Part shown: positions 9,313-50,281 of the stretch, piece by piece
Layout: every line of letters starts with the position of its first letter
Numbering within the stretch: the stretch's first letter is position 1
Assembly: GCA_030018805.1 (NCBI GenBank)
Contig: JASEHL010000002.1
Span: 1-50,334 of the forward strand
Origin: Patescibacteria group bacterium
Lineage (GTDB): Bacteria; Patescibacteriota; Minisyncoccia; Moranbacterales; UBA11712
Reading direction: 5' to 3'
Length of the DNA stretch: 50,334 nucleotides
The notes under the pieces: model-generated
The model's database searches: none
The model's input: the letters and a program-made list of their open reading frames with translations, nothing else
Told to the model about the DNA's origin: nothing
Made by a program: the position numbers and the translations under genes

Positions 9313-9834
9313 TTGAATACTTTTGATACAACCAGCCCCAGTCAAACCCGGAAACTTGGCGAAATGCTAGCCAAAAAAATTCGAGGCGGGGAAATCATTT
9401 GTCTCATGGGCGAGCTGGGAAGCGGGAAGACGACTTTCGCGCAGGGCGTATTAAAGGGGCTGGGGGCAAAAGGGCCGTACACGAGTCCGACGTTTGTAGT
9501 AATGAAAAAGTATCACGTAACATGGAACATGGAACATGGAACAAGAACAAAAAATAAAAAGATGTTCCATGACGCCTATCACATAGATTGCTATCGCGTC
9601 AGACCGAAAGATATTCTAAGCCTTGGTTGGGAGGAGATTATCGCTAACAAAAAAAATATTGTGATTGTGGAGTGGGCGGAGAGGATAAGGCGCATAATTC
9701 CGAAAGGAGCGGTGTGGTTAAAGTTTGTGCATTTAGATAACAACAAAAGGAAAATAAGTTTTATAAATCCCAATATCAAAATCCCAATTACAAATAAAAT
9801 CCCAAATCCCAAATCCAAAAGTTTGGACATTTAA
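9313..9834 (+). CDS. tsaE: tRNA t6A37 threonylcarbamoyl-transfer ATPase TsaE
   Basis: ..LMGELGSGKTTFAQGVLKGLG..SPTF.. ..YHIDCYR... Contains an in-frame heptamer-repeat segment and a repeat-encoded C-terminal tail. Confidence 0.8.
   Translation: MNTFDTTSPSQTRKLGEMLAKKIRGGEIICLMGELGSGKTTFAQGVLKGLGAKGPYTSPTFVVMKKYHVTWNMEHGTRTKNKKMFHDAYHIDCYRVRPKDILSLGWEEIIANKKNIVIVEWAERIRRIIPKGAVWLKFVHLDNNKRKISFINPNIKIPITNKIPNPKSKSLDI
9521..9543 (+). repeat. (CATGGAA)x3 heptamer repeat inside tsaE
   Basis: catggaacatggaacatggaaca, translated as ..WNMEHGT.. between conserved TsaE blocks. Confidence 0.9.
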
Positions 9835-12718: not shown

Positions 12719-13576
12719 ATGCCTGAATTGCCCGAAGTTCAAACAATCGTCGATGACTTGAACCAGAAAATCAAAGGTGATGCGATCGCCGGTTTTTGGA
12801 CGGACTGGAAAAAATCGATAAAATTGCCGGTTGATAAATTTGAGAAAGAGATAAAAAATAAGAAAATTTTGAGCGCCAGCCGAATCGGGAAAAACATTTT
12901 TTTGAATCTTTCCGGCGGGAAGACAATTTACATTCATCTCAAGATGACGGGACACCTTTTGGTTAAAAGTGAAAAGTTAAAAGTGAAAAGTTATGGAAAG
13001 GATTATTTTTCGGAAAAAGTCAATCAATATATCCATCACATTTTCTATCTCAAGTCCGGGCGGACGCTTGAATTTTCAGATCTTCGGAAATTCGGGAAAA
13101 TAATTCTGGCCGACACGGAAAAAATTAGGGAAATCGGGGAAATACAAAAGTTGGGGATAGATGCGATGAGCCGGGATTTCTCCCTGAAGAAGCTGGAAGA
13201 AATTCTTGAAAAGCGAAAAACAAAAATCAAGTTGCTTCTCATGGATCAGGCGAAAATTGCCGGAATCGGAAACATATATGTCGGCGAAATTTTGCATGAA
13301 GCGGGAATCCTCCCCACAAGGCCGGCGGATAAAATCGAAAAAAAAGAAAGAAAAAAGCTTTATCACGCTATTAAGAAGATATTATCCAAAGCAATCGACC
13401 TTCGAGGGACCTCTGACAGCGATTATCGAGACACGTCCGGCGCGCCGGGGAGATTCCAGGAAGTTTTGAAAGTCTACCGGAGGACTTCCAAAAAATGCCC
13501 GCGCTGTGGTACAATGATTCAGAGAGAAAAAATGGGTCAAAGGGGAACTTTCTTTTGCCCAAAATGCCAAAAGTAA
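12719..13576 (+). CDS. mutM: Formamidopyrimidine-DNA glycosylase (Fpg/MutM)
   Basis: MPELPEVQT.. N-terminus, H2TH region and C-terminal zinc finger CPRCG..FFCPKCQ. Confidence 0.9.
   Translation: MPELPEVQTIVDDLNQKIKGDAIAGFWTDWKKSIKLPVDKFEKEIKNKKILSASRIGKNIFLNLSGGKTIYIHLKMTGHLLVKSEKLKVKSYGKDYFSEKVNQYIHHIFYLKSGRTLEFSDLRKFGKIILADTEKIREIGEIQKLGIDAMSRDFSLKKLEEILEKRKTKIKLLLMDQAKIAGIGNIYVGEILHEAGILPTRPADKIEKKERKKLYHAIKKILSKAIDLRGTSDSDYRDTSGAPGRFQEVLKVYRRTSKKCPRCGTMIQREKMGQRGTFFCPKCQK
12963..12993 (+). repeat. (AAAAGTG/AAAAGTT)x4 heptamer repeat inside mutM
   Basis: ttaaaagtgaaaagttaaaagtgaaaagtta encodes ..VKSEKLKVKSY... A near-identical module lies at 17761. Confidence 0.9.
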
Positions 13577-14718: not shown

Positions 14719-14815
14719 CATGGAACATGGAACAATCAGGTTGGACGTTGTGCTCCATGCTCCATGCTCCATGCTCCATGCTCCATGCTCCATGCTCCAT
14801 GCTCCATGCTCCATG
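14719..14815 (+). repeat. (CATGGAA)x2, a ~20-nt spacer, then (CTCCATG)x9; the last unit supplies the holA ATG
   Basis: Counted directly: nine consecutive ctccatg units at 14753-14815. The upstream catggaa units are their imperfect reverse complement. Confidence 0.9.
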
Positions 14816-16887: not shown

Positions 16888-16922
16888 AAAATACTAAATA
16901 CAAGATACTATATACTAGATAC
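16888..16922 (+). repeat. AATACTA-type heptamer block, left partner of an inverted pair flanking ruvA
   Basis: aaatactaaatacaagatactatatactagatac. Its reverse complement recurs at 17506-17537. Confidence 0.8.
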
Positions 16923-16929
16923 AAAACGA

Positions 16930-17505: not shown

Positions 17506-17537
17506 GTATCTAGTATATAGTATTTAGTATTTGGTAT
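17506..17537 (+). repeat. Right partner (inverted) of the AATACTA-type pair flanking ruvA
   Basis: gtatctagtatatagtatttagtatttggtat. It abuts the ATG of the FemAB-family gene. Confidence 0.8.
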
Positions 17538-18587
17538 ATGGAAAAGAAGTTTTTGGATTTTATTCAACAGAATTCGCCAGATGGCGGTTTTTTGCAATCG
17601 GAACATTGGAAATCGTTTCAAGAAGCATGGGGAAGAAAAACTTATTCTCTGAATATCGCTGACGACACAGGTGATCCGATTATCGCGGCTAATATTATTG
17701 AACATACTTTGCCAGTCGTGGGGAATTATTTTTATGTACCGCGTGGACCGGTCGTGCAAGTTAAAAGTGAAAAATTAAAAGTGAAAAGTTACAGTTCAAA
17801 ATTAAAAGTTTTTTTGGATGATTTAGTTGATTTGGCCAAGAGGTGCAAAATTAGTTGGATTCGAGTGGAGCCAAATTATGAAGGAGATTTAGAAGTTATC
17901 AGAGAAAATATTCCAGACGGACTGAAAGTAAAAAAATCCGCCGTTGATATGCAGCCGAGGGAGATATTGATGATGGATATTTCGAAAGACGAGGAAGAAT
18001 TGCTGGCGGGGATGAAACAGAAGACGCGGTATAATATCAGGTTGGCGGAAAAACGGGGGGTTCGCGTATCACATAACATGGAACACATAACACATAACAT
18101 TAATAAATTTTTAAGATTAATAAAAATTACTGCAAAGAGGGACAAGATAACTGCACATCCGGAAAGTTATTATCGCAAAATGTTTGAAACAATTCCGCCG
18201 GAGGTTTTGAAAATGTATGTCGCCGAATACGAAGGAAAATTTATCTGTGCCAATCTGGTCTTATTTTTCGGAAAAACGGCAACATACTTGCATGGAGCTT
18301 CAGACAATATTCATCGCGATGCGATGGCGCCGTATCTTTTGCAGTGGCGACAGATTTTGGATGCGAGAAAAGCGGGATGCGAGAAATATGATTTCGGAGG
18401 GGTGAAAACACATAACATGGAACATGGAACATGGAACACAAGCAGCTGGGGCGGAATAACAAAATTTAAGCAAGGCTTTGCACCGCATGTCGCGCCGGTT
18501 CAATTTCCCGGGTGTTGTGATATTGTTTTGAATCCTTTCAAATATAATCTCTATCGGATTATGCAGAAATTAAAGAGAATCATTTAG
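17538..18587 (+). CDS. FemAB-family peptidoglycan interpeptide-bridge aminoacyltransferase (lipid II:glycine glycyltransferase-like)
   Basis: ..FLQSEHWKSFQEAWG.., ..KQKTRYNIRLAEKRGV.., ..TATYLHGASD..MAPYLLQW..ARKAGCEKYDFGG... Carries three in-frame heptamer-repeat segments. Confidence 0.75.
   Translation: MEKKFLDFIQQNSPDGGFLQSEHWKSFQEAWGRKTYSLNIADDTGDPIIAANIIEHTLPVVGNYFYVPRGPVVQVKSEKLKVKSYSSKLKVFLDDLVDLAKRCKISWIRVEPNYEGDLEVIRENIPDGLKVKKSAVDMQPREILMMDISKDEEELLAGMKQKTRYNIRLAEKRGVRVSHNMEHITHNINKFLRLIKITAKRDKITAHPESYYRKMFETIPPEVLKMYVAEYEGKFICANLVLFFGKTATYLHGASDNIHRDAMAPYLLQWRQILDARKAGCEKYDFGGVKTHNMEHGTWNTSSWGGITKFKQGFAPHVAPVQFPGCCDIVLNPFKYNLYRIMQKLKRII
17761..17810 (+). repeat. AAAAGTG/AAAATTA heptamer repeat inside the FemAB-family gene
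   Basis: ttaaaagtgaaaaattaaaagtgaaaagttacagttcaaaattaaaagtt encodes ..VKSEKLKVKSYSSKLKV.. Confidence 0.9.
18070..18100 (+). repeat. Degenerate CATGGAA/CATAACA heptamer repeat inside the FemAB-family gene
   Basis: cacataacatggaacacataacacataacat encodes ..HNMEHITHNI.. Confidence 0.8.
18408..18439 (+). repeat. (CATGGAA)x3 heptamer repeat inside the FemAB-family gene
   Basis: acacataacatggaacatggaacatggaacaca encodes ..THNMEHGTWNT.. Confidence 0.9.
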
Positions 18588-18824: not shown

Positions 18825-19886
18825 ATGTGTGAAAATACGGTCGGCGCGGTGTCGGGCAAAAATGCTGGCGACACTGACAGATTGGCGTTGCTTGCGGATT
18901 TCATTACCAAGTGGCGCAAAGACGTGGTTACTGATGACGAGGTGAAAAGGTTTCTTCAGAGGAAAAATCCCTTTATCGTCCCTCCTCCCGCGGCCAAACC
19001 GCTGAATTTTGAGCAGCTTCTGTCTTGGCTCAAGAAAAACGGACTGGAGTCAAAGTTGCCCGGCGGCCTGGAAAAACAGATTGCGGGTCAGGAGGGATTT
19101 TACCGCCGGTTTTTCGGAGACAATTTCCGCATTGACCGCAAAAAGATCACCGTTGACGCGAGTCGTCTGCCGGCCATCAAAGCCGGCCTGGAAGTGGGAT
19201 GTCTGAACTATGCCCTGGTCAAGGCAACGCCGGAAGTCCTGTCTGAAGCGGAAGCGCGGACGACCGAAGCCGAGTTTTTCTTTGAGCGGCCGATGAAACC
19301 GCTCAAAAACGACGGCTTTCAAATTTGGGCGGAAACCGGCACGGATCGTTGGACTAATCTCACCCTCGCGGAACTTTTGCAGAGAGGCAATCCAGCCGAG
19401 CCGGAAGAATTCGACGCCGAGGCCTTCAAAAAGGACTGGGTGGCGGAGGAAGCGAGAGTCATTTTGCAAAAGGGCCCGGCTCCGAAAGTCCAAGCCGGAG
19501 CGGTGGAAATAATTTTCACCAGCGATGTCGCGGACATCCCCCGCGACCAGAAAATCGTCAACAAAAACGGCGAGATCGCGGAACTGGACGACTGCTCATA
19601 CGTGTCGGCGATTGCCGGCAAAGTCAGAGTCCTTTCTCGAGAGGAGGAGCTCCCTCTGGCGGCCCAGCTCTGGACAAGGGACAAAACTTATCTGGCTCTC
19701 AATACCTGGGAGTGGAGAAGAGATGTTATCCCGCATGAAGACAAGGGTGTGAGTCCGCGTTGCTCGGGTGCCCTCGCCGGGTCCCTCGCCGGCGGGTTCC
19801 TCCTCGGCTCCCCCCTCGCCGCGTACTCCGGCCCCCTTCCCCCGCTCGCGTCTTGCCCTAGCACTTCGGGCTTTTTGTTTTTTTGA
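18825..19886 (+). CDS. GC-rich hypothetical protein; candidate DGR target (C-terminal ..NTWEWRRD.. followed by a low-complexity, adenine-free-encoded tail)
   Basis: Strong RBS and promoter. No family recognised for the first ~300 aa. The WEWxxD block resembles the strand preceding variable regions in FGE/C-type-lectin-fold DGR targets. An RT and an Avd-like gene are adjacent. Confidence 0.5.
   Translation: MCENTVGAVSGKNAGDTDRLALLADFITKWRKDVVTDDEVKRFLQRKNPFIVPPPAAKPLNFEQLLSWLKKNGLESKLPGGLEKQIAGQEGFYRRFFGDNFRIDRKKITVDASRLPAIKAGLEVGCLNYALVKATPEVLSEAEARTTEAEFFFERPMKPLKNDGFQIWAETGTDRWTNLTLAELLQRGNPAEPEEFDAEAFKKDWVAEEARVILQKGPAPKVQAGAVEIIFTSDVADIPRDQKIVNKNGEIAELDDCSYVSAIAGKVRVLSREEELPLAAQLWTRDKTYLALNTWEWRRDVIPHEDKGVSPRCSGALAGSLAGGFLLGSPLAAYSGPLPPLASCPSTSGFLFF
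19753..19859 (+). other. 107-nt tract containing a single adenine (3' end of the 18825 gene)
   Basis: Direct base count. The only A between 19753 and 19859 is at 19825. The tract is C/G/T only, so all three plus frames lack stop codons. Confidence 0.9.
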
Positions 19887-20166
19887 GCCAGCCGCTGATT
19901 TCTTTGCCGACGGAAACGATGATTTCCAGGTGCGCTCCGTACCAGCCGATTGGAATCAGCTTTTTCTCTACGGCTATTCTCAAATATTTTTTGAACAAAT
20001 CAAAACTGGCGCTGGCCAACGGCAGATAAGAATTGTTATAAACGGAAGCCAGAGAATATTTGTGGGTTTCATTCAGAGAACGCAGAATCTCTTTGCCGAA
20101 AAGATTTTTATCCAGTTTCGGGAAATTTCGCACCCGATCATAACAATCACCATATAGTTTTTCCAA
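19858..20166 (-). CDS. Avd-like four-helix-bundle accessory protein (23S rRNA IVS protein family-like)
   Basis: ..RVRNFPKLDKNLFGKEILRSL.. and the C-terminal ..IVSVGKEISGWLKK resemble Avd/S23-IVS four-helix-bundle proteins. It lies next to a DGR-type RT but on the opposite strand. Confidence 0.5.
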   Translation of the reverse strand: MEKLYGDCYDRVRNFPKLDKNLFGKEILRSLNETHKYSLASVYNNSYLPLASASFDLFKKYLRIAVEKKLIPIGWYGAHLEIIVSVGKEISGWLKKTKSPKC

Positions 20167-20293
20167 ATCAGAAAATAATTTGGGCTGGGAATTTTTATGA
20201 ACGACATTATTTTTTCTCGACCCGTCGGGGGGGGGCTTTCATGGCAGAAAAATTCGTCATAATATTTTTTCCGAAATAATTAGCCTGGAAAAC

Positions 20294-21262
20294 TTGTTTT
20301 CAGCCTGGCGGGAATTCAGTTCGGGAAAAATGAAAAAAGCGGATGTGCTGGAGTTCAAATTAAATCTCGAAAACAATTTGTTCGACTTGCATTGGGAATT
20401 GAAAAGCAGAACCTACCGTCATTCCAATTATACCGCATTCAACGTCTGCGATCCAAAATTGCGGAGAATCCACAAAGCAAACGTGCGCGACCGGGTTCTC
20501 CACCACGCGGTTTTCCGGATACTTTATCCAATCTTCGATAAAAACTTCATCTATGATTCATATTCCTGTCGAATTGAAAAAGGAACCCATTGGGCAGTTT
20601 CACGCCTCGAAAAATTCTGCCGCCAATTGAGCCGGAACAACACGCGAAATATATTTGCCTTGAAATGCGACGTCAAAAAATTCTTCGATTCGGTGGATCA
20701 GGAAATTTTATTGAATCTTATAAAGAAAAAAATTCAGAACGAGGACGCGATTTGGCTGGTTGAAAAAATAATTTCTAGTTTCAAGCCCGGCTTGCCTCTC
20801 GGCAATGTTACGAGCCAGTTATTCGCCAATATATATCTCAACGAATTGGATCAATTTGTGAAACACAAACTCAAGGAAAAATATTATTTGCGCTATTGCG
20901 ATGATTGCGTAATTTTAGGAAAAAGTGAAAAGCATTTGGAAAATCTTATTCCACAAATCAGCGGCTTTCTTGAGGAAAAACTAAAGTTGAATCTTCATCC
21001 CAATAAAGTTATTCTTAGAAAATATCGGCAGGGAGTTGATTTTCTGGGATATGTGGTTCTGCCGCATCATCGTGTTTTGCGAACGAAAACAAAGCGGAGA
21101 ATGTTGCGGAAAATCGGAGAGAAGAAATTTCTCTGGCGGCAAGATTTGATTTCCGAAGAATCTTTCAATCAGAGCTTGCAATCTTATCTCGGAATGTTGA
21201 AGCATTGCCGGGGACACAACATCAAAAAACGGATTGGGAAGATCACCGGTTTTGAATTATAA
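20294..21262 (+). CDS. DGR-type reverse transcriptase. The conserved N-terminus continues upstream of the TTG at 20294 in the same frame back to 20201; the upstream ATG at 20197 is out of frame across a G9 run.
   Basis: Collinear with Bordetella bRT as remembered: ..SLENLFSAWREFSSGK.., ..DRVLHHAV..IF.., ..CRIEKGTH.., ..LKCDVKKFFDSVD.., GLPLGNVTSQLFANIYL ([I/L]GxxxSQ), RYCDDCVILG, GVDFLGYVV. Confidence 0.85.
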   Translation: MFSAWREFSSGKMKKADVLEFKLNLENNLFDLHWELKSRTYRHSNYTAFNVCDPKLRRIHKANVRDRVLHHAVFRILYPIFDKNFIYDSYSCRIEKGTHWAVSRLEKFCRQLSRNNTRNIFALKCDVKKFFDSVDQEILLNLIKKKIQNEDAIWLVEKIISSFKPGLPLGNVTSQLFANIYLNELDQFVKHKLKEKYYLRYCDDCVILGKSEKHLENLIPQISGFLEEKLKLNLHPNKVILRKYRQGVDFLGYVVLPHHRVLRTKTKRRMLRKIGEKKFLWRQDLISEESFNQSLQSYLGMLKHCRGHNIKKRIGKITGFEL

Positions 21263-23038: not shown

Positions 23039-23058
23039 AAATAAATCGCCAATAAACG

Positions 23059-23179
23059 AAATTTTCTTGAAATTTAACTCGGAGCTGATTTTTATACCGA
23101 AAAAACGCTCCATACGCGAATCTACCACGCATTTTTTCGACAAAAATCAGCTCCTCAAACAAAAATTTCTGCGAAAATT
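23059..23179 (+). repeat. Copy A of a ~100-nt long-hairpin element (candidate structured RNA)
   Basis: P1 gaaattt/aaatttc (23069-75/23163-69). P2 gagctgattttt/aaaaatcagctc (23082-93/23143-54). Homologous copies lie at 46765 and 50160. Confidence 0.7.
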
Positions 23180-23609: not shown

Positions 23610-24806
23610 ATGAATACCAACACTTTCCGGATAAATTCCAGAAACAAAAAGGTGATGTTGGCCTTAGGGCCGGAATCTTCCGGCAATTTTTCCGTTTTTC
23701 GCGGAGGAAAAATTCATTTTTTCCAAACCGGGCTGGATCTTTTGCATGAGGAAAATTTTGAGAAATTCAAAAAGCTTACACTCGGCTTTTTGCGGCGGGA
23801 TAAGACAAAGCCCGATATCATTCTAACAGATCTGCATCCCGGGTACAGAACAACGATTTGGGGCAGGGAATTAGCGAAAAGATTAAAAATAAAAAACATC
23901 AATATTCAACATCACGTGGCTCACATTTTTTCAGCTATTGGAGATAAAATTATTAAAAATTCTCCGCCAAAGGCGGATCAGCCTGTGGCTGAAAAATTCA
24001 AAATTCAAAATTCATTCTTTGGGATCGCTTGCGATGGTACTGGTTACGGACTCGACGGGAAAATTTGGGGCGGAGAGGTGTTTCAATGTAAAAGCGAAAA
24101 GCGAAAAGCGAAAAGCTGTGAAAGGGTAGGGCACTTGGAGAATCAAATTCTGATTGGAGGGGATTTGGCAGTGCGGGAGCCGGCGAGGATGTTAATTAGT
24201 ATTTTAAGTAAATTTCTCGGTAAAAAGGAAATTTTTGGATTTGTGAAAAAATATTATTCGAAAAACGAGTTTGAAGTTCTTCTTAATCAGCTTCAGAGCA
24301 GATTCAATTGTCAAGAAACTTCGAGCACCGCCCGTGTTTTGGACGCAGTGGCAGTTTTACTCGGATTTTCTGCTAATCGACGAGTTAAGAAGCATGGTCC
24401 TGCGCTAGTACTCGAGAAAAATTCCACGCGCCCTTATAAATTGAACCCGGAAATAATATACGACAATGCAGAAAGAAGCTATATTTTGCTAACTACCATG
24501 CTTTTCGAATTCTTACTTAAAAATTTCAATAGAGACAAGAAGCGGTTGGCTGCCACTGTCCAGTGTTACATAGCCCAGGGTTTGCACGAGATTTCAAAAA
24601 AAATACCCTGCCTCGCCGGCAGGCAGGCAAATACTAAATACCAAATACTAAATACATATTTCTCCGGCGGAATGGCGGACAACAAAATTATGGCGGGATA
24701 TTTTTCATCGCAAGGATTTTATTTGAGCCAGAAAATACCCCGAGGCGATGCGGGGCTTTCCTTTGGACAAGTTGTCTATTACCTCTTAACAAATCCGGGG
24801 AATTAG
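23610..24806 (+). CDS. hypF: HypF-like carbamoyltransferase, C-terminal Kae1/ASKHA-like half only
   Basis: ..LALGPESSGNFSVF.., ..LTDLHPGYRTT.., ..NIQHHVAHIFS.., ..GIACDGTGYGLDGKIWGGEVF.., ..GGDLAVREPARM... No acylphosphatase, zinc-finger or YrdC-like domains. Three heptamer-repeat insertions. Confidence 0.7.
   Translation: MNTNTFRINSRNKKVMLALGPESSGNFSVFRGGKIHFFQTGLDLLHEENFEKFKKLTLGFLRRDKTKPDIILTDLHPGYRTTIWGRELAKRLKIKNINIQHHVAHIFSAIGDKIIKNSPPKADQPVAEKFKIQNSFFGIACDGTGYGLDGKIWGGEVFQCKSEKRKAKSCERVGHLENQILIGGDLAVREPARMLISILSKFLGKKEIFGFVKKYYSKNEFEVLLNQLQSRFNCQETSSTARVLDAVAVLLGFSANRRVKKHGPALVLEKNSTRPYKLNPEIIYDNAERSYILLTTMLFEFLLKNFNRDKKRLAATVQCYIAQGLHEISKKIPCLAGRQANTKYQILNTYFSGGMADNKIMAGYFSSQGFYLSQKIPRGDAGLSFGQVVYYLLTNPGN
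23991..24017 (+). repeat. (AAAATTC)x3 heptamer repeat inside hypF, preceded by two small hairpins
   Basis: gaaaaattcaaaattcaaaattcattc. Upstream lie ccgccaaaggcgg and cagcctgtggctg. Confidence 0.85.
24089..24116 (+). repeat. (AAAAGCG)x4 heptamer repeat inside hypF
   Basis: aaaagcgaaaagcgaaaagcgaaaagc encodes ..KSEKRKAKS.. Confidence 0.9.
24607..24656 (+). repeat. Hairpin plus (AAATACY)x4 heptamer repeat inside hypF
   Basis: cctgcctcgccggcaggcagg, then caaatactaaataccaaatactaaataca, encoding ..NTKYQILNTY.. Confidence 0.9.
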
Positions 24807-27088: not shown

Positions 27089-28414
27089 ATGAAAAATCTC
27101 GTCCCTCAATCCCTCAAAAATGTATATCATCTTTTCCAGGCAATTTTTGCCAATGTTTGGTATGGTTTTCCGTCGCGGCGCTTGAAAGTGATTGGCGTGA
27201 CGGGGACAAACGGGAAAACGACAACGGTGCAGATGATCGCGAAGATTTTGGAAGAGGCAGGGTACAAAATTGCCGTTGCCTCAACAATAAATTTTAAGAT
27301 TGGTGAAAAAGAATGGGTGAATAAGAGCAAATTCACGACTCTCTCCAGTTGGGCGCTGCAAAAATTTTTGAGGCGAGCTGTGGCGGCCGGATGCGAATAC
27401 GCGGTTCTCGAAGTGTCTTCGCATTCGCTCGACCAAAACCGGGTTTGGGGAGTGGATTTCGATGTAGCGGTGATCGCGAATATCACGCGCGAGCATCTTG
27501 ATTATCATGAGACGATGGAAGAATACGCGAAGGTGAAGGGGAAATTGTTTGCAATGGCGGCTAAAAATTCAAACGGGGTGGCGGTAATTAATCTAGAGAT
27601 GGATAACGCAGAAAATTTCTTGAAATATACAATAAAAGAGAGATATGGATACGGCATAAAAGTCCAAAGTCCAAAGTCCAAAGTTCAAAGTGACAGTTTA
27701 AAGTTAAAAATTATTGAAGCCGAAAATATTCAATTAAACATACAAAATACTAAATACCAGATACTAAATACCAACTTCCAGCTAAATTTGCCTGGAGAAT
27801 TCAACGTCGAAAACGCTCTGGCGGCGACGTGTGTCGGACTTTCCCAAAATATACCGCTTGAAAAAATTGCCGAGGCGCTGGGAAAGATAAAGAATATACC
27901 GGGCAGGATGGAGCGAATAGGAAATGACAAGGGCTTGGAAATAATCGTCGATTATGCGGTGACGCCGGATTCTCTGGAGAAACTTTATAGTTTAGTTGGG
28001 GAGATGAGGAAGAGAGGGGAGATTAGGGACGGGAGAATCATTGCCGTTTTTGGCGCGTGCGGTGAACGAGACCGGGGCAAGCGGCCAATTATGGGAGAAA
28101 TTGTGGCGAGAGTTGCCGATTACGTGATTATAACCAACGAAGATCCATACGGCGAAGATCCGCAGCAAATTATAGACGAGGTTTTTGAAGGAGTGAAGAA
28201 ACACAAAGAGGAAAATGAAAATGCTTTCCGAATATTGGACCGCCGCGAAGCCATCAAAAAAGCCCTCGAAATGGCAAGAGCAGGTGATATCGTCGTGATC
28301 ACCGGGAAAGGAGCCGAAGAAACGATGGCTGTTGGTAAAGAAAGAATTCCCTGGAACGATCCGGCAGTTATCCGAGAAACATTGCGAGAGCAAGTGTCCC
28401 CAAAAAACCGATAA
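27089..28414 (+). CDS. murE: Mur ligase, MurE-like UDP-MurNAc-tripeptide synthetase with a short N-domain
   Basis: ..VIGVTGTNGKTTT.., ..LEVSSHSLDQNRV..NITREHLDYHETMEEY.., ..GRMERI..IVDYAVTPDSLEKL.., ..FGACGERDRGKRPIMG..NEDPYGEDP.. Confidence 0.8.
   Translation: MKNLVPQSLKNVYHLFQAIFANVWYGFPSRRLKVIGVTGTNGKTTTVQMIAKILEEAGYKIAVASTINFKIGEKEWVNKSKFTTLSSWALQKFLRRAVAAGCEYAVLEVSSHSLDQNRVWGVDFDVAVIANITREHLDYHETMEEYAKVKGKLFAMAAKNSNGVAVINLEMDNAENFLKYTIKERYGYGIKVQSPKSKVQSDSLKLKIIEAENIQLNIQNTKYQILNTNFQLNLPGEFNVENALAATCVGLSQNIPLEKIAEALGKIKNIPGRMERIGNDKGLEIIVDYAVTPDSLEKLYSLVGEMRKRGEIRDGRIIAVFGACGERDRGKRPIMGEIVARVADYVIITNEDPYGEDPQQIIDEVFEGVKKHKEENENAFRILDRREAIKKALEMARAGDIVVITGKGAEETMAVGKERIPWNDPAVIRETLREQVSPKNR
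27658..27712 (+). repeat. (AAAGTCC)x3 and related heptamer repeat inside murE
   Basis: aaaagtccaaagtccaaagtccaaagttcaaagtgacagtttaaagttaaaaatt encodes ..KVQSPKSKVQSDSLKLK.. Confidence 0.9.
27742..27772 (+). repeat. (AAATACY) heptamer repeat inside murE
   Basis: acaaaatactaaataccagatactaaatacc encodes ..NTKYQILNT.., the same peptide as in hypF. Confidence 0.9.
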
Positions 28415-46741: not shown

Positions 46742-46764
46742 GAATTGAGAAATCAAAAAAATAC

Positions 46765-46888
46765 TGATTTTCTCAAGAATTAACTCGAATGTGGTTTTTA
46801 TACCCAAAAATTTTCCTCGGATCACGAACCACCCAAGCAAATTTTTGGACAAAAATCACATTCTCAAACAAAATTCTTTTCGAAAATC
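46765..46888 (+). repeat. Copy B of the long-hairpin element, immediately upstream of dnaG
   Basis: P1 aagaatt/aattctt (46775-81/46872-78). P2 aatgtggttttt/aaaaatcacatt (46788-99/46851-62). Confidence 0.7.
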
Positions 46889-46928: not shown

Positions 46929-48728
46929 ATGTCTGACGTCGAAGAAGTAAAAAACAGAATAAACGTCGTTGATTTGGTTGGCGAGTATATTCGCCTCCAA
47001 AAAGCAGGGAGCAACTGGAGGGCTCTCTGTCCTTTTCATAATGAAAAAACTCCTTCCTTCATGGTGAGCGAAGAGCGCCGAAGCTTTCATTGCTTCGGAT
47101 GTGGAAAGGGCGGAGACATTTTCACTTTTGTGATGGAAATGGAAGGGATTGGTTTTCGGGAAGCTCTCGAGCAATTAGCGCAAAAGGCGGGAATTCAATT
47201 GAAAAGAAATGAGAATTGGGAAGCAAGAGGCGAGAAAGGGGAGAAAAAAAAGAAATTGTATGACATATTGGAATTGGCGGCGAAATGGTATGAAAAAAAT
47301 CTTTGGGAGGGAAAAGGCCGGGATAAAATTTTGAAATATTTGCGCGGACGCGGGCTCCGGGATGAAACGATAAAAAAATTCCGCCTGGGATACGCGCCGG
47401 ACGGATGGAGGAATATGTTAGAGTTTTTGCCGAAGCGAGGGTATAAAGCTGAAGAAATTACAAGAACAGGATTACTAGTTGAAAAAGAATCAGGAATCAG
47501 GAATCAGGAATCAGGGGAAAGATATTATGACAGATTCAGGTATCGAATAATGTTTCCCGTCCAGGACGTGATGGGAAGAGTGGTTGGATTTTCGGCCCGC
47601 GTCGCGCCGGGCGGAGACGAAAAAACGGCCAAATACATCAACACGCCGCAAACGGAGCTTTATGACAAAAGCAAAATTCTCTACGGCCTGCATCTCGCCA
47701 AGACTGAAGTCAGGAAGCAAGACGCCGCTGTTCTGGTCGAAGGAAATACGGACGTCATCGCGTCGCACCAGGCCGGCTTCGGGAACACCGTCGCTGTTTC
47801 CGGAACGGCGCTCACGCCGGAGCAGATAAAAATCGTGAAGCGCTACACCAACAATCTGAAGATGGCATACGACATGGACTCGGCCGGACAGGCGGCGGCG
47901 AAAAGAAGCGCCAAGATTTGTCTCGAAAACGATTTGGATGTTAGAATAGTTTTGTTGCCCTCGGGAAAAGACGCAGCGGACGTTCTGAAAGACGGCAAAG
48001 ACATTTGGAAGAAAGCGCTTGAAAAAGCCCGCAATATCGTCGAATATTATTTCGAAGACGTGTTTTCCCGGCTCAATGCCAAAAATCCGACCGACAAGAA
48101 AAAAATCGCCCGCGAGATCCTCAATGTGGTCAAGGACATTGCCGATCCGGTTGAAAAATCGCATTGGCTGAAAACTCTTTCCCAAAAACTCGATGTTGAA
48201 GAAAAAATTCTTATTGAAGTATTAAACAGAGCGGGAAGGAGCGAAAAAAGTCATCAGGAAGAAAAGCCGGAAGCGGCCGAAAGGGCAGGGAGAGCAAAAA
48301 TTCTGGAAAAAAGAATTATCGGACTTTTAGTCGCTTTTCCGGGGGAAACTGAAAAGGGAAAAGGTTTGGTCCGGGAGAAAGATTTTTCCGGCGGCGGGGA
48401 AAAGAAAATTTTCGGAATAATCGCGAAGGAAAAGAAAAGGCCGGATTTTGAGAAAATAATCAAAACAATTTCCGATTATGAATCCCAAAAGCTCCTTGAA
48501 GAAGCTGTCTTTGAAATTGAGGTTGAAGCGGAGCAAAGGAGCGGGACGGTTTTCGACCCGGCGGACGAGCTCAAAGAAGCGCTGGAACAATTGCGAAAAT
48601 TCAAATCAAAAGAAAAAATCGCCGAAATCACCAAGCAAATCCGGGAAGCGGAGAAAACGGGAAACAAGGAAGCGGTGAAGAAGCTCATGAGAGAATTTCA
48701 GGATTTGTCGGAAGAAATCAAGGGGTAA
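46929..48728 (+). CDS. dnaG: DNA primase
   Basis: Zinc finger ..CPFHNEKTPSFMV..FHCFGCGKGGD.. and TOPRIM ..VLVEGNTDVI..MDSAG... Contains a (GAATCAG)x4 segment. Confidence 0.95.
   Translation: MSDVEEVKNRINVVDLVGEYIRLQKAGSNWRALCPFHNEKTPSFMVSEERRSFHCFGCGKGGDIFTFVMEMEGIGFREALEQLAQKAGIQLKRNENWEARGEKGEKKKKLYDILELAAKWYEKNLWEGKGRDKILKYLRGRGLRDETIKKFRLGYAPDGWRNMLEFLPKRGYKAEEITRTGLLVEKESGIRNQESGERYYDRFRYRIMFPVQDVMGRVVGFSARVAPGGDEKTAKYINTPQTELYDKSKILYGLHLAKTEVRKQDAAVLVEGNTDVIASHQAGFGNTVAVSGTALTPEQIKIVKRYTNNLKMAYDMDSAGQAAAKRSAKICLENDLDVRIVLLPSGKDAADVLKDGKDIWKKALEKARNIVEYYFEDVFSRLNAKNPTDKKKIAREILNVVKDIADPVEKSHWLKTLSQKLDVEEKILIEVLNRAGRSEKSHQEEKPEAAERAGRAKILEKRIIGLLVAFPGETEKGKGLVREKDFSGGGEKKIFGIIAKEKKRPDFEKIIKTISDYESQKLLEEAVFEIEVEAEQRSGTVFDPADELKEALEQLRKFKSKEKIAEITKQIREAEKTGNKEAVKKLMREFQDLSEEIKG
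47487..47514 (+). repeat. (GAATCAG)x4 heptamer repeat inside dnaG
   Basis: gaatcaggaatcaggaatcaggaatcag encodes ..ESGIRNQESG.. Confidence 0.9.
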
Positions 48729-48848: not shown

Positions 48849-50138
48849 ATGGCCAGGAAAAAGAAAAAAAAGGTGAAGCCGAAAGCGAAAAAAAAGGAGA
48901 CGAAGAAAAGAAGGAAGAAAGCGGCCAAAAGACCGGCGGAAAGTATGAAAGCGAGAAAGAAAAAAAACGCGCTGAAAAAAAAGAAACTGCGGGCCGGGAA
49001 AAAGAAGGCGGGCAAAAGCGGGTTGAAAAGAAGGGAGAAAGAAGTTTTCGGAAAAGAAAAAAGCCGAGCCGAAGAACTTCTCAAGGTTGGAAAACAAAGA
49101 GGTTTCGTAACGGAAGACGAAATTTTGCAAGCCATTCCCGAGGTTGAGAAAAATTTGAGCGGGCTCGAGGATCTCTATGAGAAACTGGAAAAAGGCGGAA
49201 TCAAAGTCATAAGCTCCGACGAGGTGATCAAGGGAGAAGTCGAGAAGGAAACCGAACTTCGGGAAAAAAAGGTCGAAGAAATTGATATTCCTCTCGACCT
49301 TGACGACGTCTCTTCGGATTCGGTGCAAATGTATCTTCGGGAAATCGGCCGAGTCCCTCTGCTCAAGGCCGAAGAAGAAGTGAGTTTGGCGAAAAGGAAT
49401 GAAAAAGGGGACTTGGCGGCCAAGCAAAAACTGACAGAGGCTAATTTGCGCCTTGTTGTTTCGATTGCCAAAAAATACGTAGGAAGAAGCACAAATCTTT
49501 CGCTGCTCGATCTCATCCAGGAAGGAAACATCGGGCTTTTCCGGGCGGTGGAAAAATTCGACTACCGGAAGGGATACAAATTCTCGACTTACGCCACCTG
49601 GTGGATACGCCAGGCTATCACGCGGGCGCTGGCTGACCAATCACGAACAATCCGCATTCCGGTGCATATGGTTGAAACGATCAACAAATACACCCAAGCC
49701 ACGCGACGTCTGGTTCAGGAGCTTGGCCGCGACCCTCTCCCCGAAGAAATTGCCGCGGAAATGGGAATCGAGGTGGAAAAAGTACGCCACATCATGAAAA
49801 TTTCGCAGGAAACGGTTTCTATTGAAACTCCCGTCGGAGACAGCGAGGATGACAGCATCCTTGGAGATTTTATCGAGGACACGGAAACGGTTATGCCTCA
49901 TCACAGCGCGGCGCGAAAGCTTCTGGCCGATCATGTCGAGCTGGCGCTGAAAGACCTCACGCCCCGCGAACAGAAAATTCTCAAAATTCGGTTTGGTCTT
50001 GAAGACGGAGTGACGCATACACTGGAAGAAGTGGGACACGAATTCGGGGTGACGCGCGAGCGGATCCGGCAGATTGAAGCGAAAGCTCTTGATAAAATCA
50101 GAGAATCAGGCCTCGCGGGGAAGTTGAAGGATTATTAG
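48849..50138 (+). CDS. rpoD: RNA polymerase primary sigma factor (sigma-70 family) with an extremely basic N-terminal extension
   Basis: Region 2 ..[39 protein letters not shown]... Region 4.2 ..[24 protein letters not shown]... N-terminus [24 protein letters not shown]... Confidence 0.9.
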
Positions 50139-50159
50139 GTGGCATCGCAAAAGGAATCC

Positions 50160-50281
50160 AAATTTTCTTGAAATTGAACTCGAAGCTGGTTTTTTGTGGT
50201 AAAAATTTTCTAGGCAAGCGAATCTAAGGCGAAAATTTTTGACAAAAATCAGCTTCTCAAACAACAATTTCTGCAAAAATT
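50160..50281 (+). repeat. Copy C of the long-hairpin element, downstream of rpoD
   Basis: P1 gaaattg/caatttc (50170-76/50265-71). P2 aagctggttttt/aaaaatcagctt (50183-94/50244-55). Confidence 0.7.

Follow-up and report, generated by a model that had tools for sequence, protein, structure and literature searches.

In a 50,334-nucleotide (nt) stretch of DNA from a Patescibacteria group bacterium (assembly GCA_030018805.1, contig JASEHL010000002.1; hereafter the window), the gene at 18825-19886 ends in a 107-nt tract with a single adenine, next to a gene for a reverse transcriptase (RT) of the type found in diversity-generating retroelements (DGRs). Its position and its homology to related loci show the tract to be the variable repeat (VR) of a DGR target gene, placed at the gene's 3' end. 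The loss of adenines in the tract is site-specific and confined to the repeat, and its non-adenine sites are as conserved as in working template repeats (TRs) of the related loci. Furthermore, the VR and the TR are merged into one unit in this contig. We consider it probable, although by no means assured, that the tract is a DGR variable repeat that has been deprived of its protected template and that its adenines were lost through repeated adenine mutagenesis, which would have driven it to an adenine-free state. Such a state would be an absorbing end point because non-A bases are copied faithfully, and because the template is now A-free the element would seem no longer able to diversify anything.

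Adenine loss at the template-adenine sites of the repeat

An earlier note on this DNA, based on the letters alone, had reported a 107-nt tract with its sole A at 19825, and a direct count confirmed this, giving C54, G29, T23 and A1. The note was also right that the adenine content is ordinary in the rest of the gene, which is 25.8% A outside of the tract; from that composition alone, the probability of finding no more than one A in 107 nt is about 5e-13. The A at 19825 divides the tract into one A-free run of 72 nt (19753-19824) and another of 34 nt (19826-19859); the longest A-free run elsewhere in the window is 41 nt. The window contains on average 31.7 A per 107 nt, and neither the window nor about 165 kb of related loci contains a second 107-nt span with one or no A. 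Because stop codons all require both A and T, all six reading frames are open through the tract, not only the three plus-strand frames that had been pointed out. The absence of stop codons in the tract is also the reason why an overlapping open reading frame (ORF) exists from position 19768, as had been proposed, and the same read-through peptide is found in P0058, the product of another locus with a fused repeat (L025; related loci and proteins are referred to by L and P numbers).

After the removal of one C from the run at 19839-19843, the tract was aligned to the consensus of nine TRs from the family. The window differs from the consensus at 26 of the 28 A sites, where C (12), G (7) and T (7) have taken the place of A, and at 8 of the 68 non-A sites (Fisher p = 2.6e-14). 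The TRs of the relatives themselves differ from the same consensus at 6-18 non-A sites. The two adenines that were kept are located at 19825, in a TAC codon, and at 19860, in the terminal CTA codon, which lies outside the mutagenised zone in the relatives. The A-free zone starts 9 nt ahead of the TR/VR homology and stops exactly at the last codon of the homology. The site-specific pattern fits adenine-specific DGR mutagenesis. It is not what compositional drift, a GC island or an assembly chimera of VR variants would produce, and a deaminase would yield A to G changes only.

The target protein has about 50 homologues of 340-360 amino acids (aa) with 40-70% identity, identified in metagenomes and in metagenome-assembled genomes of the candidate phyla radiation (CPR)/Patescibacteria (Moranbacteria, Paceibacterota), and the tract is placed where these homologues have their VR, as the earlier note had anticipated. 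The C-terminal ends of the family follow the pattern SVAxAxSxGxEFxLxSxxADxSxxxxRLRLAL, directly followed by the stop codon, in which x denotes hypervariable residues. The window protein could be aligned with the family through the VR segment as SGALAGSLAGGFLLGSPLAAYSGPLP and diverges from it thereafter, with the terminal sequence PLPPLASCPSTSGFLFF before the stop codon in place of the RLRLAL of the family; the translated tail agrees with the one given in the note. Owing to the extra C in the run of five, the conserved R(S)RLAL codons (19844-19861) are no longer read in frame, whereas a TGA codon at 19884-19886 now is. When one C was deleted in silico from the run, the sequence GPLPRSRLAL was restored; without the extra C, the ORF would continue for about 100 codons through the antisense of avd (the gene for the accessory variability determinant), like the P0058 product in L025. 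Since the C-terminus is both frameshifted and built of residues with A-free codons, we infer that the function of the target protein is probably impaired.

No Pfam or NCBIfam domain was detected in the target protein or in its family. An AF2 model of the homologue P0011 (pLDDT 85, pTM 0.80) gave no fold match in a Foldseek search against the PDB (best E 6.7), and going by the model the family may have a fold other than the C-type lectin or immunoglobulin folds that are usual for variable proteins. A first impression of a formylglycine-generating enzyme- or C-type lectin-like "WEW...GF" module at the end of the target was not supported by any Pfam, NCBIfam or fold match. No A-free case beyond the window was found among 59 family proteins retrieved by database searches (P0001-P0059).

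A single repeat with the flanks of both VR and TR

The canonical organization of the system was recognized in loci L004/5/7, L006, L008, L009/20, L011/18, L013, L014, L021, L022/23, L024 and L026. Downstream of the VR, these loci carry, in this order, GC hairpins (one or two) with a terminator-like stem, a TAnAAT box resembling a -10 element, the conserved block of about 190 nt, the TR, avd on the minus strand, a poly-G tract and the RT gene. The sequence TTCGGGTTCAGATTTCCCGCCGCAGGCGGG is located after the VR, and the TR is AAC-rich and located on the same strand as the VR, 408-452 nt downstream of it. Nine TR/VR pairs were scored (L004, L006, L008, L011, L013, L014, L021, L024 and L026). Nearly all mismatches within the repeat are located at TR adenines, with only 0-4 non-A mismatches per 93 nt. 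Each of these TRs holds 21-28 As, of which the VR retains 14-54% (79 of 222 in the pooled data), and the changed positions carry G in 79 cases, T in 48 and C in 16. Examples of low retention are L026 (0.14; 4 of 28 As), L013 (0.24) and L021, in which next to nothing is retained over the 5' two thirds of the VR. The family appears to be diversifying in nature because the VRs differ between samples of one lineage: L016 and L011/L018 have different VRs and identical flanks.

The domain of about 190 nt is located directly 5' of the TR in all 11 canonical loci that were aligned, with a mean column identity of 82% (for example L013:2104-2292, L021:4697-4885 and L006:2046-2234), and it carries the motif AACAAAACCCGAAGTTCAGCGCG. 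RNAalifold predicted several hairpins in this domain, with compensatory changes in 13 of 67 predicted pairs. In addition, a long-range helix of 15 bp was predicted, in which AACAAAACCCGAAGT in the 5' domain pairs with ACTTCGGGCTTTTTGTT just 3' of the TR, so that the TR would be looped out. The domain has no match to an Rfam family, and it is probably the DGR RNA scaffold of this group of loci.

No second copy of the repeat was found in the 50-kb window by identity scanning, by scanning for A-only mismatches or by repeat finding. All candidates for a TR elsewhere in the window were at chance level, whether sought as ungapped 40-mers, by A-only mismatches on both strands, with the minus strand as the TR or with a repeat finder. 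The 60 nt upstream of the single copy match the flanks of the relatives' VRs at 37-46 positions, but those of their TRs at only 0-5. The 80 nt downstream match the flanks of the TRs at 55-71 positions, as compared to 1-20 for the VR flanks in seven of eight relatives and 49 for the VR flank of L006. Because the single copy combines a VR-type upstream flank with a TR-type downstream flank, the two repeats are merged in this contig, and the suggestion in the earlier note that the TR is lost or equal to the VR holds. The window lacks the spacer of roughly 430 nt together with the hairpins, the promoter and the 190-nt block that it contains, and blastn gave chance matches only. Nor was it, or the 5' RNA domain, displaced to another place in the window or in L002, as blastn again yielded chance matches and no clamp partner was found. 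The sequence at 19863-19879 (ACTTCGGGCTTTTTGTT) is the remaining 3' strand of the long-range RNA helix of the family, and there is no pairing partner for it in the window. Downstream of the repeat, the flank is of the TR type, resembling IMH* rather than the initiation-of-mutagenic-homing (IMH) flank of a VR, and it lacks the GC hairpin.

Fused repeats were also identified in two other lineages. The fusion in L002, L003 and L015 is identical in three assemblies, and its product is fully VR-like with seven As in the repeat. The fusion in L025, a contig of 920 nt, has a VR-like 5' half and an AAC-rich, TR-like 3' half, with 19 As in the repeat. In the RT phylogeny, the window, L002 and the canonical L014 formed one clade in which L002 paired with L014. 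Because a canonical locus groups with L002 inside the window clade, the two fusions must have arisen independently, and the tree rules out a common origin.

Other loci differ from the canonical organization in other ways. At several positions where the VR of L022/L023 (L022:1310-1440) still carries A, the TR (L022:1767-1895), which is identical in two samples, shows T, C or G, and it also has a deletion of 1 nt. This is the reverse of the canonical pattern and indicates, on sequence grounds, an A-specific change of the TR itself. In L001, the TR (L001:5357-5452) and the VR do not differ over about 115 nt, a stretch with eight retained As, and the TR holds 11 of the 28 consensus As, which looks like VR-to-TR gene conversion. 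The RT is truncated in L001, and truncated or interrupted in L004 (L004:5882-6835), although the TR/VR pair of the latter is canonical. In L027 (L027:3551-4250), a deletion extends from just past the VR terminator and the promoter into the RT body, and both the TR and avd are missing. Finally, L010, L012, L017 and L029 contain target genes with no DGR nearby.

Rounds of mutagenesis and alternative explanations

If As are kept independently at the pooled retention of 0.36, the probability that at most one of 27 is kept is about 1e-4. When the spread between events is taken into account with a beta-binomial fit, the probability is 1.4e-3 per lineage, or about 0.06 over approximately 45 lineages. 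For the bRT of Bordetella phage BPP-1, the only DGR reverse transcriptase with measured rates, misincorporation without selection affects from 31% of the template As per pass in vivo to 51% in vitro (PMC12875486). At these rates, a single round has a probability below 4e-7 and 5-9 passes are implied; a retention of 0.36 implies about three. The A-free state was found in one and the fused state in three of about 45 lineages, and the two coincide in the window (p about 0.07 if independent). Their occurrence in one locus is expected under iteration because the exhaustion of As makes the repeats identical. Taken together, iteration is favoured over a single round.

In the most likely order of events, the process would have begun with erosion of the TR, caused either by mutagenised cDNA that homed into the TR instead of the VR or by gene conversion from VR to TR, and the VR would then have been rewritten from the eroded TR. 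Among the relatives, eroded TRs of both types occur. Approximately three to nine rounds of adenine-specific misincorporation by the RT would have stripped the As in the absence of an A-rich master to reset the sequence. Once the TR had no As, homing would copy it exactly, such that the TR and VR became perfect direct repeats of about 110 nt, located about 430 nt apart, and these identical repeats may have collapsed by deletion, or conceivably in the assembler. Both self-mutagenesis of the TR and recombination between TR and VR have been described in the engineered DGRec system (bioRxiv 10.1101/2025.03.24.644984).

The earlier note had instead hypothesized that the segment was reverse-transcribed from its own transcript and homed back repeatedly. 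The parts of this hypothesis that concern the identity of the VR, the adenine-specific loss confined to the repeat and the single copy hold; repeated homing from the own transcript is conjectural, as is the order of events. In such a scenario, the fusion would have come first. The target transcript, which now extends over the repeat, the avd antisense and the RT gene, would then have been its own template, with mutagenised cDNA homing back into the one copy until the repeat was A-free. The single-copy architecture that it requires is present, the RT is intact over aa 1-314 and so is avd, and the TR-type 3' flank is kept, where priming would be expected by analogy with the BPP-1 spacer (PMC5703328). 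Moreover, hairpin-less targets in BPP-1 keep about 0.1% of the activity (PMC3240598), and cDNA in the DGRec system can recombine into its own template DNA without an IMH (bioRxiv 10.1101/2025.03.24.644984). However, the fusion has removed the promoter-proximal RNA domain of about 190 nt, including the 5' strand of the 15-bp clamp around the TR, for which no partner is left, and also the VR hairpin, which BPP-1 needs for efficient targeting (PMC3240598). Furthermore, the fused L002 and L025 still hold As. We therefore regard this order of events as rather unlikely, and TR erosion before the merger as at least as likely. That the single repeat acted as both template and target after the fusion, with an mRNA that lacks the 5' domain and the hairpin writing itself until the As are exhausted, an "autodiversifying gene" with a built-in stop, is an unlikely scenario. 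Another possibility is that one homing event replaced nearly all of the template As and that this variant was fixed by a later deletion between the VR and an intact TR, in which the crossover fell within the identical 3' end, as it did in L002. Retention does vary by event, as seen in L026, L013 and L021, the family-wise probability is not extreme, and L002 proves that such deletions happen with a fully VR-like product. Yet two rare events would have had to strike the same locus independently (about 1.4e-3 times 3/45), the scenario is at odds with the measured per-pass misincorporation of bRT (PMC12875486), and the C-rich, proline- and leucine-rich outcome is unlike any single-round VR that we have seen. 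This makes a single round distinctly unlikely. Highly improbable, in our view, are selection for an A-free sequence, whether it acted on a hydrophobic tail, on a signal without T on the strand of avd or on an element that is structured or GC-rich, and a compositional or assembly accident. The A-free codons do give a Gly/Ala/Leu/Pro-rich, hydrophobic tail that could in principle serve as an anchor, the tract is located directly 3' of avd on the minus strand, and the excess of C is not explained by mutagenesis alone. But the changes track the TR-A sites and spare the others. The boundaries of the tract coincide with those of the repeat unit, no other family member has such a tail, and a chimera of VR variants would retain about a third of the As. 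A structured RNA or G-rich element was rejected, as the tract folds no better than shuffled sequences on either strand (z -1.0 and -0.4) and has no Rfam match.

Several observations weigh against the explanation that we prefer, the loss of As by repeated mutagenesis after erosion of the template. There is one A-free case only, with no close relative of the window lineage (the best match to the target is 63% identical), and a consensus of the family had to be used in place of the lineage's own ancestral TR. Although fused, L002 and L025 hold As, and fusion by itself is thus not the cause of the A loss. The fusion could also be an assembly collapse of two identical repeats, in which case the TR was eroded but not lost. 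A single extreme round has a family-wise probability of about 0.06, and L026 keeps only 4 of 28 As. The outcomes at former A sites are also C-rich as compared to canonical VRs, with C12, G7 and T7 against G77, T43 and C16 (chi-square p = 8e-5). The 11 AAY codons of the consensus have become CTC or CTT (5), GGC or GGG (3), CCC (2) and TAC (1) in the window, and a third CCC is located at a neighbouring AGC codon. Proline is absent from the 340 decodable codons at the 11 AAY positions in 38 homologue VRs, as compared to three proline codons in the window. CT dinucleotides represent 5% at the AAY positions of these VRs, and the residues preferred in functional VRs are D, Y, G, S, H and N. This outcome is not predicted by iteration alone, and requires either that there was no selection at the protein level or that the RT has another bias. 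The tract may show an unselected spectrum, either because the TR is untranslated or because the gene is no longer under selection. The raw cDNA of bRT is richer in the A-to-C class in AC and ACC contexts (PMC12875486); a context bias of this kind (ACC to CCC) may cover the CCC codons, but not the five CTC/CTT codons.

Neighbouring features and relation to known retroelements

The features of the locus are listed in the table.

Table. Coordinates of the repeat, the genes and the homopolymer runs of the locus in the window.
Feature	Position	Strand	Remarks
DGR target gene (353-aa ORF)	18825..19886	+	Body intact, 59-68% identical to homologues; C-terminus aberrant
A-poor tract	19753..19859	+	Single A at 19825 by direct count
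Merged VR/TR repeat unit (TGC TCG ... GCC CTA)	19762..19860	+	Homologous to VR and TR of relatives
Spurious overlapping ORF	19768..20157	+	Open owing to the stop-free tract; antisense of avd beyond it
C5 run	19839..19843	+	One C above the family register
avd (accessory variability determinant)	19858..20166	-	Convergent with target gene; stop codon overlaps last codon of repeat
TR-type 3' flank	19860..19939	+	Antisense of avd 3' end; matches TR flanks of relatives
Poly-G(9)	20227..20235	+	Between conserved ATG (20197) and RT body; 8-10 G in all family loci
DGR reverse transcriptase, listed ORF	20294..21262	+	LGNVTSQLFAN and YCDD motifs

The earlier note had assigned the adjacent RT to the DGR family, and the sequence comparisons support a DGR-type RT. 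The best match in the PDB is 8ub7_A (E 5.8e-46 over aa 2-309), a 328-aa RT with the motifs IGSLTSQLFAN and RYMDD, which we take to be the BPP-1 bRT from the RT-dead YMDD to SMAA mutant in PMC5703328, while the next matches, to retron and group II enzymes, are at 1e-21. The group II, retron and Drt models of NCBIfam, which has no model for DGR RTs, scored far under their cut-offs. The conserved N-terminal motif of the RT, NIFSEIISLENLF, extends upstream of the listed ORF in the same frame as far as about 20236, and no canonical start codon is present. Over aa 1-314, the RT is free of internal stops as compared to the relatives. The avd gene is intact in the window and is 69-89% identical to the gene at the same position in 18 related loci. 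Its product matches the Pfam bAvd profile (E 6e-6, profile positions 8-106 of 107) and DivGenRetAVD in NCBIfam (E 2e-7), both below the curated cut-offs, and has no match in the PDB by sequence. In the family layout, avd is encoded on the other strand and is placed after the TR and before the RT gene, and the "spacer" of the template RNA is thus avd antisense. The avd stop codon, TAG, overlaps with CTA, the last codon of the TR, in the family.

Relative to the ATG at 20197, the RT body of the window is read in the +1 frame. The RT body is out of frame with the upstream ATG in 9 of 12 distinct loci, including the window, and in frame in L001, L018 and L021. L011 (10 G) and L018 (8 G) belong to one lineage and differ in the length of the poly-G. 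On the minus strand, the poly-G encodes the PPP of an N-terminal extension of avd in L001, and with one G less in the window, the RT ATG and an avd ATG would both be in frame. The poly-G, which is found at the same place in L001-L023, might switch the entire DGR by phase variation or slippage, or it might reflect a sequencing error in the homopolymer.

Other repeats were also observed in the window. More than 20 short tandem arrays have a period of 7 nt and differing units (AACATGG, AAAAGTG, TGCTCCA in nine copies, AAATACT, AAAGTCC, GAATCAG and others), for example at 9519-9543, 12962-12993, 14751-14815, 16889-16926, 17506-17539, 18414-18438, 24090-24116, 27659-27691 and 47487-47515. They are mostly located at gene boundaries, with some inside ORFs, such as those at 18066-18107 and 18405-18446 in a FemAB-like gene (HNMEH.../MEHGTWN), and they recall the heptameric short tandemly repeated repetitive (STRR) sequences of cyanobacteria. 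An intergenic element of about 130 nt is present in three copies with 64-84% identity, at 23049-23179, 46755-46888 and 50150-50281, and contains the sequence ...TTTTCTTGAAATTTAACTCG...GACAAAAATCAGCT.CTCAAACAA...TTCTGC.AAAATT. The only other stretch that is comparably poor in one base, a T-poor one at 48851-48943 with 3 T in 107 nt and a T-free run of 69 nt, encodes an ordinary Lys/Glu/Ala-rich N-terminal extension of a sigma-70 family gene; considered as a partner of the A-poor tract, this Lys-rich N-terminus proved to be unrelated.

Similar to canonical DGRs, represented by BPP-1 (mtd-avd-TR-brt) and by the CPR clade, the window locus contains an RT with the I/LGxxxSQ and Y(M/C)DD motifs, an Avd-like four-helix protein and a VR at the 3' end of the target gene, and its relatives also share the AAC-rich TRs, the A-only mismatches and the GC hairpin after the VR. 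The window differs from them in having no separate TR, no hairpin and almost no A to mutate. The family as a whole differs in the opposite strand of avd, the 5' RNA domain of about 190 nt with its clamp, the poly-G before the RT and a target fold with no match in the PDB. A TR/VR pair with mismatches at the TR adenines, which defines a DGR, is found in nine relatives and not in the window. Because two defining features are missing, this pair and the IMH with its hairpin, the window locus is a decayed derivative of a DGR rather than a complete DGR.

An invariant master template is essential to DGRs, and its protection and failure have so far been addressed only with engineered constructs. An IMH-for-IMH* swap and self-mutagenesis of an engineered TR were reportedly described by Doulatov et al. 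in 2004 (Nature 431:476). As in the self-mutagenesis of DGRec, in which mutagenised cDNA is written into the template DNA and the template loses its As (bioRxiv 10.1101/2025.03.24.644984), the As of the window repeat would have been lost from the template itself. DGRec, however, consists of laboratory constructs in E. coli followed over hours or days, whereas here a natural end state and natural intermediates (the TRs of L022 and L001) are suggested by sequence. Inactive or remnant DGRs have been reported in surveys of metagenomes (Roux et al., bioRxiv 10.1101/2020.04.01.020958; Wu et al. 2018, PMC5758913), and these loci likewise no longer diversify, but their inactivity was inferred from lacking variation or missing parts. 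No description of a natural A-purged VR/TR or of a VR-TR fusion was found in the literature that was searched. Since survey pipelines that are based on TR/VR pairs require such a pair, they would miss these loci.

The graded series, from an intact TR to a partly eroded TR, a TR that equals the VR, a fusion and an A-free single copy, looks like a natural record of this failure mode. The compact and well-conserved DGR RNA architecture of the family, with a 5' domain, a clamp helix around the TR and avd antisense in the spacer, is offered for mechanistic work. If the tract is unselected, it provides a glimpse of the raw substitution spectrum of the RT. A-free 3' ends of genes located beside RTs could be a search signature for extinct DGRs. 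More generally, the results suggest that DGRs have a finite, burnable mutational "fuel", and that DGRs in the streamlined genomes of the CPR repeatedly decay by way of TR erosion and VR-TR recombination.

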